Source: a virus
Lineage: Duplodnaviria; Caudoviricetes
Strand: one strand, 5' to 3'
DNA: 50,135 nucleotides
IMG/VR virus record: IMGVR_UViG_3300011128_000204
Span: 1 to 50,135 of that record
Shown here: positions 15,139-16,976 of the stretch, piece by piece
Numbering within the stretch: position 1 is the stretch's first letter
Layout of the letters: every line of letters begins with the position of its first letter
Translations under genes and position numbers: made by a program
The notes under the pieces: model-generated
The model's database searches: none
Told to the model about the DNA's origin: nothing
The model's input: only the letters and a program-made list of their open reading frames with translations

Positions 15139-15306
15139 TTACTTGTGACCTATCTTCTTTGAAGGACGATTGTTTATTTCTTTCCAATGACTACGCAATT
15201 GTTCGTCATAGAAAGTGTCTCTGGACCCGCTTTCGTTTGCAGGTAATGCTTTGCGAAACGATTTGGTGTTTCGCTTAAGTCGTTTCTTTTGTTTATTTGT
15301 TTGCAT
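15139..15306 (-). CDS. Small basic hypothetical protein (55 aa, not in the ORF track)
   Basis: Manual translation MQTNKQKKRLKRNTKSFRKALPANESGSRDTFYDEQLRSHWKEINNRPSKKIGHK; strong TAAGGAGG RBS. Confidence 0.7.
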   Translation of the reverse strand: MQTNKQKKRLKRNTKSFRKALPANESGSRDTFYDEQLRSHWKEINNRPSKKIGHK

Positions 15307-15319
15307 AATACCTCCTTAA

Positions 15320-15384
15320 TTAGTCCCGTCTTCGGCCACACTGACGGGCAAGTGCTACTAGGAAGTAGGATTCTCCCTTGGCCT
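15320..15384 (-). ncRNA. Candidate structured RNA, copy 1 (pseudoknot, possible ribozyme)
   Basis: GGCCA..CACU-UGCCCGUC-AGUG-UGGCC-GAA-GACGGG-ACUAA; intergenic; homologous to 15627-15689 with compensatory changes. Confidence 0.6.
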
Positions 15385-15388
15385 ATTA

Positions 15389-15592
15389 TTAGAAATACCA
15401 AGCGTTTCTATTAAAAAACGCCACGATGCCTTCTTTTGTCGCAGGAAACTCACAAGTATGCTTTTCAATGTCACACCATGATTGATCCTTCACCTTAGCG
15501 ATGTATTCTTTTCGCTCCTTGGCCGTAGCAAAGACCTTTACTTCGTTGTCGCCGCCTTCGTTGTCCATTGCCCGTGCTAAAAATAGCTTCAT
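15389..15592 (-). CDS. Hypothetical protein flanked by the duplicated RNA element
   Basis: 67 aa, AGGAG RBS. Confidence 0.75.
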   Translation of the reverse strand: MKLFLARAMDNEGGDNEVKVFATAKERKEYIAKVKDQSWCDIEKHTCEFPATKEGIVAFFNRNAWYF

Positions 15593-15626
15593 AAATTTCT
15601 CCTATAAAGGTACGTCTTGCGCCCAA

Positions 15627-15689
15627 ACTAGCCCCGCCTGCGGCCACACGGACGGGAACGTGCAAAAGAGGGGTGTTAACCCTTGGCCT
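15627..15689 (-). ncRNA. Candidate structured RNA, copy 2
   Basis: GGCCA..CACG-UUCCCGUC-CGUG-UGGCC-GCA-GGCGGG-GCUAG; starts 12 nt after the SSB stop. Confidence 0.6.
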
Positions 15690-15699
15690 TACTGCTTAG

Positions 15700-16191
15700 T
15701 TAAGACCAGCTTGCAGTCTCTAGGCCAGCGGCTGGTGTAGCCTGTGCCTGTTGTGGCTGCTCAGTCTGAGAGTGTGGTTGTGCAGGGCCAGCGCCAGACT
15801 TGTACCCAGCAATCTTGTTGCTTGGTCCATACTGGCCAGAGCCAGGCTCAACCTTAATGCTTGCAGTGAACTGCTTACCCATCGCAGCGCGCAGCATGTC
15901 AGTGTTCAAAGTCTGTGATACATCCTGCCCAGTGGCTCCAATGAATCCCTTCAGGCGAGACACGCCCACTTGGTTGTTGAGCACGAAGTAATCCCAGATC
16001 TTACGACCTGCATAGCTTGGCCCAACTACATTGAACTCAATCTTGATCATGTCGTTGCCAGCCTTGGACTGCTGCTCTTCGTACATAGCCGCCGACAAAG
16101 TGTAATCACCTGCTGGGAACGGCTCAGAACCACCGCCACCTGTACTTGCTTCGATGTTACTTACATCGATCCCTTGATCTAATAGACCCAT
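15700..16191 (-). CDS. Single-stranded DNA-binding protein (DUF669-like)
   Basis: PFPAGDY...SKAGNDMIKIEF.V.GP.YAGRKIWD; flexible tail ending in W-S; follows a Sak4-like gene. Confidence 0.8.
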   Translation of the reverse strand: MGLLDQGIDVSNIEASTGGGGSEPFPAGDYTLSAAMYEEQQSKAGNDMIKIEFNVVGPSYAGRKIWDYFVLNNQVGVSRLKGFIGATGQDVSQTLNTDMLRAAMGKQFTASIKVEPGSGQYGPSNKIAGYKSGAGPAQPHSQTEQPQQAQATPAAGLETASWS

Positions 16192-16202
16192 AATGCTGCT
16201 CC

Positions 16203-16976
16203 TTAAGCTGCTTCTTCGTTTTTATTTGCAGACAATGCTGCGGTGTAGGAATCCATAAAGGATTGCCATGAGAACTCAATCTTCTGTGGAAGATCTATGC
16301 GAGACTTCGCGTCATATGCTGCTGCGAACTTTGTAAACAAACTGCGGTTACCGTAGCTCACGCCACGCGCCTTCTGATTATCCTTAATTAAGGTGGTTTC
16401 ATAGTTAGCGAACAAATTGAAATCAACCCAGTCCTTTATCAGGGCGTTGACCTTTTTGTTGCAGCGCATCTCCCAGCGATCATAAGGTTCCAACTCTGGA
16501 TCTTTGTACGCCTTAGATGCAACGTGGCTTAACAGAATGATGTTCATGTTCTTCGATGAGTGAGCTACGTTCAGCCCATTCAAAAGATGAACCCATGCAT
16601 TCTCTTCAGCTACATAGAACGCGCCGTACCCCGCCTTGGGATCTGCCGCACTTGACCAGCCATTCTTAGTACACACATATGCTTCGCCCAACTTGGCGGC
16701 AGCATCAGTCGTATCCAAAACAACAGTTTTGTACGGATGGTCTTCAGTCACAAGCGTCTTCACCTGCTCAAGAAGATCTTCCCAAGTGTTAGCTTGGGGG
16801 AACCTTGGCGCATCAATGAAAGACAGACCGTCCTCCGCTTGAATGAAGATCGATTGGTCTGCGTTAGCACCAAACGTACTCTTGCCTATACCATCTGTGC
16901 CTTGGATGTTAATCCGCACTGGGGGTATTGGCCCACCGCTTTCGCGGGTAGTTGTTACCTGCTGAAGTAAAGACAT
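16203..16976 (-). CDS. AAA_24 / Sak4-like ATPase (recombination)
   Basis: GTDGIGKST Walker A, TVVLDT Walker B, IILLSH, DAKSR. Confidence 0.85.
   Translation of the reverse strand: MSLLQQVTTTRESGGPIPPVRINIQGTDGIGKSTFGANADQSIFIQAEDGLSFIDAPRFPQANTWEDLLEQVKTLVTEDHPYKTVVLDTTDAAAKLGEAYVCTKNGWSSAADPKAGYGAFYVAEENAWVHLLNGLNVAHSSKNMNIILLSHVASKAYKDPELEPYDRWEMRCNKKVNALIKDWVDFNLFANYETTLIKDNQKARGVSYGNRSLFTKFAAAYDAKSRIDLPQKIEFSWQSFMDSYTAALSANKNEEAA

Follow-up and report, generated by a model that had tools for sequence, protein, structure and literature searches.

A 50,135-bp virus record (IMGVR_UViG_3300011128_000204; CheckV completeness estimate, 96%), analysed here at its full length and referred to as the window, carries on its minus strand two co-oriented repeats, one on either side of a 67-amino-acid (aa) open reading frame (ORF). 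These repeats are copies of a widespread, previously uncatalogued family of pseudoknotted RNAs in uncultured marine phages. Each copy, hereafter called a unit, is a three-way junction composed of a 4-bp closing helix (P1), a variable hairpin and a 5-bp helix (P3) carrying an 8-nt loop. Positions 3 to 8 of this loop, usually CCCGUC, form 6 bp with a strand that starts 3 nt past P1 and usually reads GGCGGG or GACGGG, and this pairing constitutes an H-type pseudoknot locked onto the junction. The structure of the unit, the strand on which it is transcribed, its belonging to a family and its placement among phage genes emerge directly from the comparison of the two copies with their relatives.

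Fold of the unit and covariation in its relatives

The upstream unit (unit 2; 15633 to 15688, 56 nt) starts 11 nt past the TAA of a 163-aa DUF669 gene, and the downstream one (unit 1; 15325 to 15383, 59 nt) starts 5 nt past the TAA of the 67-aa ORF, the P1 starts of the two being 305 nt apart. Read along the minus strand, unit 2 begins with the 5' strand of P1 (GGCC, 15685 to 15688) and a spacer A, followed by the hairpin AGGG[UUAACAC]CCCU (15669 to 15683), the junction CUUUU (15664 to 15668), the 5' strand of P3 (GCACG, 15659 to 15663), the 8-nt loop UUCCCGUC (15651 to 15658, with the 5' strand of the pseudoknot at 15651 to 15656), the 3' strands of P3 (CGUGU, 15646 to 15650) and of P1 (GGCC, 15642 to 15645), the linker GCA (15639 to 15641) and the 3' strand of the pseudoknot (GGCGGG, 15633 to 15638). 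The same elements follow each other in unit 1, namely, GGCC (15380 to 15383) with a spacer A, the hairpin AGGGAG[AAUCCUA]CUUCCU (15360 to 15378), the junction AGUA (15356 to 15359), GCACU (15351 to 15355), the 8-nt loop UGCCCGUC (15343 to 15350, with the pseudoknot strand at 15343 to 15348), AGUGU (15338 to 15342), GGCC (15334 to 15337), the linker GAA (15331 to 15333) and GACGGG (15325 to 15330). The A/U-rich tail and ribosome-binding site (RBS) that follow unit 1 (ACUAAUUAAGGAGGUAUUAUG, 15304 to 15324) are not conserved as part of the element. In the covariance model described below, units 2 and 1 score 71.5 and 84 bits, respectively, each being itself a seed sequence. The original prediction, made from the DNA letters of the window, had announced two elements of ~62 nt lying ~305 nt apart on the minus strand, and they are present as placed (15688 to 15633 and 15383 to 15325); the differences that it had read between the copies, CACU/AGUG versus CACG/CGUG and GACGGG versus GGCGGG, are also correct. 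The shared architecture that it had drawn stands as well, although its helix sizes need amendment, P3 being 5 bp long (GCACU/AGUGU) and P1 effectively 4 bp.

The pattern GGCCAAGGGN{20,45}GTGTGGCC, which runs from P1 to P1', has two matches in the window, and 100 dinucleotide shuffles yielded none. A shorter 16-mer pattern is weaker, with two matches in the window and two or more in 9 of 100 shuffles, and no third copy is found in the window by the covariance model. Nested minimum-free-energy (MFE) folding of each copy, on either strand and with the pseudoknot not modelled, does not rise above shuffles (z = +0.85 and +0.31). Because nested MFE folding cannot model a pseudoknot, the structural support comes from covariation in relatives.

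The main alignment comprises 88 model matches, corresponding to 73 distinct rows, in which P1, P3 and the pseudoknot together are paired in 99.6% of the cells (97.8 to 99.6% overall). Both-sided changes occur in 10 of the 15 base pairs, that is, in all four of P1, in all five of P3 and in one of the six of the pseudoknot. The covariation score is 0.376, compared with 0.125 ± 0.008 for shuffled alignments (none of 500 shuffles was as high), and it does not exceed 0.039 after sliding of the partner columns. Among the pair types of P1 are GGCC/GGCC, GACC/GGUC, GGGC/GCCC, GGUC/GACC, UGGC/GCCA, AGGC/GCCU, GGCU/AGCC and GACU/AGUC. An anchored test of P1 helix length was weak, the observed distribution being shifted modestly from the nulls; since 4-bp complements are common by chance, the support for P1 rests on the aligned covariation. 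The hairpin region is more stable than shuffles, with a mean z of -2.9 and z < -1 in 94% of 70 rows, and the segment between P1 and P3 measures 18 to 42 nt in those rows and up to ~55 nt elsewhere.

The pseudoknot is near-invariant in the 73-row set, in part because the retrieval pattern had imposed it. A second alignment was thus informative, comprising 113 distinct 3' halves, 13 of them from units whose loop sequences differ. Here, both-sided changes occur in 11 of 11 pairs, compensation is seen at each of the six pseudoknot pairs, and every pseudoknot cell is paired (100%). The matched loop/strand combinations are CCCGUC/GRCGGG, CCCACC/GGUGGG, CCUGUC/GGCAGG, CCUGUG/CACAGG, UCCGUC/GGCGGA, CUCGUC/GACGAG, UCCGUU/AACGGA, CCAGUU/AACUGG, CCCAGC/GCUGGG and CCCGCC/GGCGGG. 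Eleven of the 13 variants were picked up by a scan in which complementarity was a requirement, and the count of covarying pseudoknot pairs is therefore partly circular. Generic structural scanning for noncanonical units was noisy (370 matches versus 145 on reversed sequences), and variants were kept only if the arrangement of the P1 3' strand and linker and the adjacency to canonical units agreed. Two variants (L123:3001-3067 and L122:3109-3177; L numbers denote individual loci) were found by a model blind to the pseudoknot, and both are perfectly compensated. Furthermore, neighbouring units of one array differ in their pseudoknots, each matching its own partner (L122, L123, L231, L260 and L277), which speaks for pairing inside each unit.

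The central pair of the pseudoknot is U-G in 95 of the 113 copies, U-A in 15 and C-A in none, and the outer pair of P3 is G-U in 59 of them. On the other strand these U-G and G-U pairs would be C-A mismatches, which places the structure on the transcribed strand. The argument for a coding-strand RNA that had been drawn from G-U pairs in the two copies is hence upheld across the family, and the RNA-level pairing that had been proposed for P1, for P3 and between loop and downstream strand is borne out in full by covariation. Coding potential of the units could be ruled out on the basis of the compensatory helix changes and the varying hairpin lengths. P3 adjoins P1 without any spacer, and the linker is of 3 nt, sometimes of 4 nt or longer. 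Since the sizes of the core elements appear to forbid straight stacking of P1 under P3 once the pseudoknot forms, P1 probably packs beside P3, which would bring the 5' entry near the pseudoknot junction.

The unpaired parts are variable. The junction between the hairpin and P3 spans 4 to 8 nt without any invariant base, and the two nucleotides past P1 also vary. Among copies collected without bias from the search pattern, linkers read GAA, GCA, ACA, UAA, AAA, GAUA or GUAU, and the first two loop positions UU, UG or CG. The tail after the pseudoknot is variable too, [A/G]CU being the commonest; there is no C at +1 or +2 past the pseudoknot in 28 of ~154 unique copies (UUUUU, GUUU, AAAAC and others), as counted by hand reading of 31 rows, from which one probable chance match and two rows with a C at +2 were dropped. 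Since junction, linker and tail vary, an invariant unpaired core of the kind present in ribozyme active sites or ligand pockets is not evident in the unit, and selection, as judged from the aligned copies, acts on the fold rather than on the unpaired sequence. U-rich tails occur in just 7 of 155 unique copies, and the unit is therefore not a general intrinsic terminator.

Two associations involve the variable parts. Sub-families of the units combine the hairpin loop (U)CAUCAC with the junction UCC(A/U), or the loop CUCCA with the junction GAAAC (e.g., L139, L198 and L230 versus L148, L176 and L178), and loop position 2 (U or G) tends to accompany pseudoknot position 2' (G or A). The latter could correspond to a base triple, and both associations could reflect either a tertiary contact or shared ancestry. 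A degenerate unit of ~26.5 bits with an enlarged P3 loop was also observed at L140:3157-3222 and L170:3122-3187, as well as in L141, L151, L160, L161 and L163. It overlaps a small ORF (MSSAKDIF...) at the 3' end of the latter, whose last codons and stop lie within the pseudoknot strand and the tail, and it appears to have been partly co-opted as coding sequence.

Distribution, arrays and cassette borders

A search with the DUF669 protein yielded 77 viral-contig loci (identity, 99 to 40%), and the element is present in the 200 nt past the DUF669 stop in most loci of 57 to 99% identity, often twice. The covariance model, built from 7 copies and ignorant of the pseudoknot, gave 65 matches at E ≤ 1 in 49 sources. 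The first pattern applied to viral contigs returned 116 stretches, of which just 7 were true relatives; a degenerate pattern combining the loop and the pseudoknot strand then identified more than 120 further marine viral contigs, a number to be taken as a lower bound. Parsing of 196 sources gave 240 instances, which reduce to 168 unique ones and to 110 unique cores; unit length across the family is ~56 to 95 nt. When five phage records were scanned over their whole length, four carried the element, with one or two matches each at a single locus; no element was found in the fifth, a complete relative, nor specifically in its DUF669 intergenic region.

In one genome each from 185,579 prokaryote species, the pattern matched 21 times and only two matches are family-like. 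These lie on 32- to 34-kb contigs of two Bacteroidota metagenome-assembled genomes (MAGs) from GTDB (L315:1725-1818, a Sphingobacteriales MAG, and L321:5025-5052, a Flavobacteriales MAG), which, judged from their size, are probably binned phage DNA. Of the others, two (L322 and L328) have a P3 of at least 5 bp and belong to GC-rich actinobacterial DNA, and 17 have a P3 of at most 4 bp and are chance-like. Since the scan of species genomes was nearly empty, the element is essentially confined to phages. The strong Shine-Dalgarno (SD) sequences of these phages are a poor fit to a Bacteroidota host. The sequencing runs that contain the locus are labelled as seawater or marine metagenomes. Against 50,697 phage records, blastn of the locus gave no match and tblastn of the Sak4-like protein encoded next to it gave only matches below 35% identity, with no cultured relative or host among them.

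Of 116 unique arrays, 73 consist of one unit, 39 of two, 3 of three and 1 (L123) of five, with 8 to 10 A/U-rich nt between neighbouring units. The last unit usually ends ~10 to 45 nt ahead of the next start codon, and in 71 of 109 terminal units a start codon with an SD-like sequence lies within 45 nt (median, 26 nt). The sites are found between early genes or directly past an early promoter, and the orientation always follows transcription. In particular, in phages of the L147 type the unit lies on the other DNA strand, directly past the promoter-like sequence TTGTAT-17-TAATAT. It precedes an RBS and ATG on that strand, the ATG being that of a 73-aa ORF at a distance of 17 nt, which is followed by a primase-polymerase-like gene (named by eye from its motifs); these units flip strand together with their genes, which is why the orientation can be said to follow transcription. 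ORFs next to the units form 31 clusters upstream and 35 downstream. Representatives of the former include cro/YdaS-like and XRE helix-turn-helix (HTH) proteins and DUF3310, and among those of the latter are an SNF2 helicase, a PDDEXK-like DUF3799 protein and HTH proteins, all products of early-region genes (replication, recombination and cro-like regulators).

Some simpler relations to the neighbouring genes could be rejected. A general linkage of the element to DUF669 is ruled out by 96 of 109 pattern-derived loci, in which the fetched stretch contains no DUF669 homologue. Stimulation of stop-codon read-through or frameshifting is ruled out by the copies located in 5' untranslated regions (UTRs), and in the case of read-through past the DUF669 stop, the frame closes after 7 codons.

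In the window, all genes around the units are on the minus strand. A 142-aa ORF and an 82-aa ORF lie upstream of the gene for a Sak4-like AAA_24 annealing protein (16203 to 16976), which is followed by the 163-aa DUF669/single-stranded DNA-binding (SSB)-like protein (15700 to 16191; PF05037, E = 3.5e-08; phrog_378, single-strand DNA binding protein), by the 67-aa ORF between the units (15389 to 15592), by a 55-aa very basic protein downstream of unit 1 (15139 to 15306) and, beyond it, by further small ORFs and a DEAD/ResIII helicase. Neither the 67-aa nor the 55-aa ORF matches any Pfam or PHROG family. The SD sequence AAGGAGG of the 55-aa ORF begins 7 nt past unit 1 and its ATG lies 19 nt past the unit. 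Its product begins MQTNKQKKRLKRNTKSFRK, and the very basic N terminus is reminiscent of arginine-rich RNA-binding peptides. A promoter and terminator scan around the locus gave nothing that exceeds shuffles.

The gene arrangements of close relatives diverge exactly at the units. With E standing for one unit, the order is DUF669 / E / orf67 / E / orf55 orf53 / orf142 in the window, DUF669 / E E / orf142 in L119, DUF669 / E x5 / orf142 in L123, DUF669 / E / orf55 orf53 / orf142 in L124 and L189, and DUF669 / E / orf55 orf53 / E / orf142 in L145, L146 and L194. The 67-aa cassette is absent from the close relatives, and the 55-aa ORF and orf53 move together as a cassette between units. In five of these loci (L124:2992-3055; also L145, L146, L189 and L194), the spacer between the DUF669 stop and the unit is of ~60 nt instead of the usual 6 to 14 nt and holds an inverted repeat of its own (UUGCAACUU...AAGUUGCA). 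Contigs from marine RNA libraries (X15 to X18) cover parts of the locus with the same alternative junctions; one skips from 15374 to 15680, which removes orf67, and another fuses the end of orf53 to a unit. Being contigs, which may derive from DNA or from related strains, they speak neither for RNA ends nor for transcription, and gaps in their coverage are uninformative. The original prediction had regarded the repeats as possible homology arms for swapping the enclosed gene. This fits the mosaic of the relatives as an evolutionary side effect, but the mosaic does not demonstrate the mechanism; as a by-product, the conserved ~30-nt core of the unit may have set the points at which small gene cassettes, the 67-aa ORF among them, recombine.

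Comparison with known RNAs

No Rfam 15 model accounts for the unit. The 4227 models include those of C4 and CI antisense RNAs, riboswitches and the twister, pistol, hatchet and hammerhead ribozymes. At gathering thresholds, the only match in the whole window is the Mu-gpT-DE RNA, outside the element; at E ≤ 10 there is no match in positions 15200 to 15800, and at E ≤ 1 nothing falls on the elements of six related loci with diverse copies, in which one weak Ocean-V match lies elsewhere. The absence of the element from Rfam agrees with the candidate novelty proposed from the two copies. The Mu-gpT-DE match (RF03012; 41467 to 41519, plus strand) is full length, with 71.5 bits against a gathering threshold of 49 and E = 9.3e-15, and suggests a Mu-like head gene region on the plus strand. 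The Ocean-V match (L123:3912-3958, plus strand) is below threshold (28.7 bits against 75; E = 0.041), lies downstream of the five-unit array and is probably due to chance.

The original prediction had named among its candidates a ribozyme similar to those of hepatitis delta virus (HDV), which would be a minimal form with P1, P3, the loop L3, an extended P1.1, the catalytic C in RCUAA and a P2 formed with the RBS region. The 8-nt loop, whose first position is U and whose sixth is G, does resemble the L3 of this ribozyme class. However, in HDV-like ribozymes P1 is of ~6 to 7 bp and P1.1, of ~2 bp, comes directly past the 3' strand of P1, whereas here the P1 core is of 4 bp and a 6-bp helix begins only after a linker of 3 to 4 nt. 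The variable hairpin sits where J1/2 and P2 would be, and there is no P4. P2 is absent: the longest helix between junction and tail averages 4.30 in 167 unique copies, no more than chance (4.28 ± 0.09 with shuffled partners), and in arrays only 8 to 10 A/U-rich nt are left between the pseudoknot and the next P1. The CUUCCU that had been read as a P2 strand in unit 1 belongs to the 3' strand of the variable hairpin (AGGGAG/CUUCCU), and the two-state switch in which it would have paired with the RBS finds no support, copies with the identical hairpin sequence preceding another unit and not an RBS (L119, L122 and L123). The strand order P1-P3-L3-P3'-P1' followed by the L3-pairing strand is shared with HDV-like ribozymes (minimal and theta forms included), as is the phage context, and minimal forms lacking P4 are present in phages (PMC10879173). 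The class has an invariant catalytic cytosine at the first J4/2 position (PMC10879173), while the GACUAA/GGCUAG strand is not conserved here and the tail C is missing in the 28 copies mentioned above. Moreover, the Rfam models HDV, CPEB3, drz and HDV-F-prausnitzii match neither positions 15200 to 15800 of the window (E ≤ 10) nor the six loci (E ≤ 1). An HDV-like identity is thus extremely improbable.

A resemblance in topology is found with the class 1 exoribonuclease-resistant RNAs (xrRNAs) of flaviviruses. In published xrRNA diagrams, the S4 strand follows the 3' strand of P1 directly, and the strand order of the units is that of these RNAs. Those RNAs belong to RNA viruses of eukaryotes, whereas the units belong to DNA phages of bacteria, and the phage unit is without P4. 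According to published descriptions (PMC8571300, PMC8374639), class 1 xrRNAs fold into a three-way junction of P1, P2 and P3, with a second pseudoknot (PK2) of 2 to 7 bp between L3 and a downstream strand, and often occur in tandem. The units share with them the junction of P1, P2 and P3 (here with 4 of 4 pairs of P1 and 5 of 5 of P3 covarying), the PK2-type pairing (here of 6 bp and paired in 100% of 113 copies), a length of ~60 to 70 nt, the frequent tandem duplication and the conservation of structure more than of sequence. However, the single conserved junction C depicted there is replaced by 4 to 8 variable nucleotides, and no Rfam xrRNA model matches the element at the thresholds given above (window, E ≤ 10; six loci, E ≤ 1). 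The phage unit may thus be regarded as an analogue of class 1 xrRNAs in secondary-structure topology and not as a member of the family.

Three phage systems are comparable in other respects. The promoter-early stem-loop (PeSL) elements of T4-type phages are repeated noncoding modules located at small early genes, at borders of gene shuffling. Like them, the units are repeated modules that flank small early genes in a hypervariable region and mark shuffling borders; different from the PeSL, which combines a promoter with a simple stem-loop, they are covarying pseudoknotted RNAs without a recognisable internal promoter. The leader of T4 gene 32 contains a pseudoknot and, between it and the RBS, an unstructured A/U-rich tract. 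It is likewise a cis-acting structured phage RNA in the transcript of an early or replication gene, but it is a simple H-type pseudoknot placed before its own SSB gene, with neither arrays nor a three-way junction. Finally, the put RNA of phage HK022 is described as a V-shaped pair of long stem-loops with a triplex, of ~70 nt and promoter proximal (PMC9378689). It has only the placement near early promoters or cro-like genes in common with the units, from which it differs in architecture (a stem-loop pair and a triplex versus a three-way junction and a pseudoknot) and in not forming arrays. We detected no sequence or model similarity of the unit to either the gene 32 pseudoknot or put. In the papers searched, on sequence motifs, on xrRNAs in phages and on surveys of phage RNA motifs, we found no description of the motif.

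Possible roles and significance

We tentatively favour, with less than even confidence, the explanation that the unit is an autonomous cis-acting module of mRNA leaders and intercistronic regions, working as a structural barrier or insulator. The units would be transcribed within early operons as rigid modules in cis that mark cistron boundaries. A host endonuclease would cut the A/U-rich spacers, leaving an upstream segment that ends, and a downstream segment that starts, with a unit, and the unit would protect the 3' end of the one and the 5' end of the other. Near a promoter, the unit would cap the transcript at its 5' end, and it would furthermore keep the next RBS unpaired and free of long-range pairing, in a manner functionally analogous to nuclease-resistant viral RNAs. 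The frequent double arrays fit this picture of a boundary element. Several points weigh against it. The four scanned records that carry the element have it at one locus each, though many locations should be occupied by a general stabiliser; simple hairpins usually suffice as 3' barriers, so that a fold this elaborate hints at some more specific partner; the CCCGUC/GRCGGG sequences are conserved far beyond the needs of pairing, which is in part a search bias; and copy number ranges from 1 to 5 among near-identical phages, which would suit titration or a decoy just as well. Pressing the analogy further, it is possible to hypothesize, with a low chance of being right, that the unit is a phage counterpart of xrRNAs, whose junction, latched by the pseudoknot, would mechanically halt RNase J, scanning RNase E or a 3' exonuclease/degradosome of the host where cistrons of the early mRNA meet, or else a new ribozyme class or a decoy for a host factor.

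A regulatory RNA that acts in cis through a protein, as in a T4 gene 32-like operator, or through RNA polymerase, as in nut- or put-like antitermination, is rather unlikely. It would agree with the single early-region locus per genome, with the highly conserved pseudoknot sequence, with the A/U-rich tracts between pseudoknot and RBS and with the sites past an early promoter or past cro/YdaS-like and XRE HTH genes, nutR and putR lying past cro as well. However, arrays of up to five units whose number varies among near-identical phages are not, to our knowledge, known for nut or put sites, the whole pseudoknot sequence can be replaced if pairing is kept, and no candidate protein was seen to co-occur with the units, a DUF669 homologue being absent from the stretch fetched in 96 of 109 pattern-derived loci. 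The description of put supports the comparison in terms of placement, near early promoters and past cro, while its architecture of two stem-loops and a triplex differs (PMC9378689). Copy number and array structure, together with the location in an early, variable region of accessory genes, would suit a processed small RNA acting in trans, a decoy or sponge for a host factor (a nuclease or a defence protein) or a ligand aptamer in the form of a tandem riboswitch or sponge. The units of an array are indeed autonomous, with mutually orthogonal helices, and the abutment of P3 on P1, which recalls the T arm and acceptor stem of tRNA, might offer a processing substrate. This role is nonetheless distinctly unlikely, since no unpaired nucleotides are conserved for a binding pocket, the tight spacing of the terminal unit to the next RBS points to action in cis and ARAGORN detects no tRNA-like gene (neither tRNA nor transfer-messenger RNA).

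The lack of conserved unpaired nucleotides bears also on a self-cleaving ribozyme of a new, non-HDV class that would cut polycistronic early mRNA at each unit. The compact pseudoknotted fold of 56 to 95 nt, the phage origin, the tandem copies, the intercistronic and 5'-end positions and the resemblance of the 8-nt loop to L3 would all be in keeping with it, but junction, linker and tail offer no invariant nucleotides for an active site, the most conserved nucleotides are Watson-Crick paired and swappable for other pairs, and no ribozyme of Rfam 15 matches the window region (E ≤ 10) or the six loci (E ≤ 1), which makes such an activity quite improbable. Very improbable, lastly, is an element acting at the DNA level, either as a single-stranded DNA priming or origin signal or as protein-binding iterons or palindromic operators. 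The replication and recombination module in which the units lie, beside genes for SSB-like, Sak4, helicase and primase-polymerase-like proteins (the last identified by eye), and the repeated arrays at one locus per genome would be compatible with it, and the inverted repeats of palindromic operators can also covary. Nevertheless, protein-binding sites leave three interleaved covarying helices unexplained, G-U accounts for nearly every wobble pair when read on the transcribed strand, the central pseudoknot pair being U-G in 95 of 113 copies where a DNA helix would prefer T-A, and the orientation always tracks the flanking genes.

The barrier or insulator that we favour, like the alternatives, concerns a compact and very well supported RNA fold that escapes every Rfam 15 model. 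The module is abundant in marine viral contigs (more than 120, as a lower bound) and holds a regulatory position in early operons, where arrays of orthogonal units mark the borders of small early-gene exchange. The covariation data amount to a testable model at base-pair resolution. Should the unit block nucleases, insulate cistrons or cleave itself, it would represent a natural portable part for the control of polycistronic mRNA, and it would provide a new handle on the organisation of early gene expression in uncultured phages; should it prove a counterpart of xrRNAs, no xrRNA-like device would have been seen before it in a DNA phage or bacterial system.

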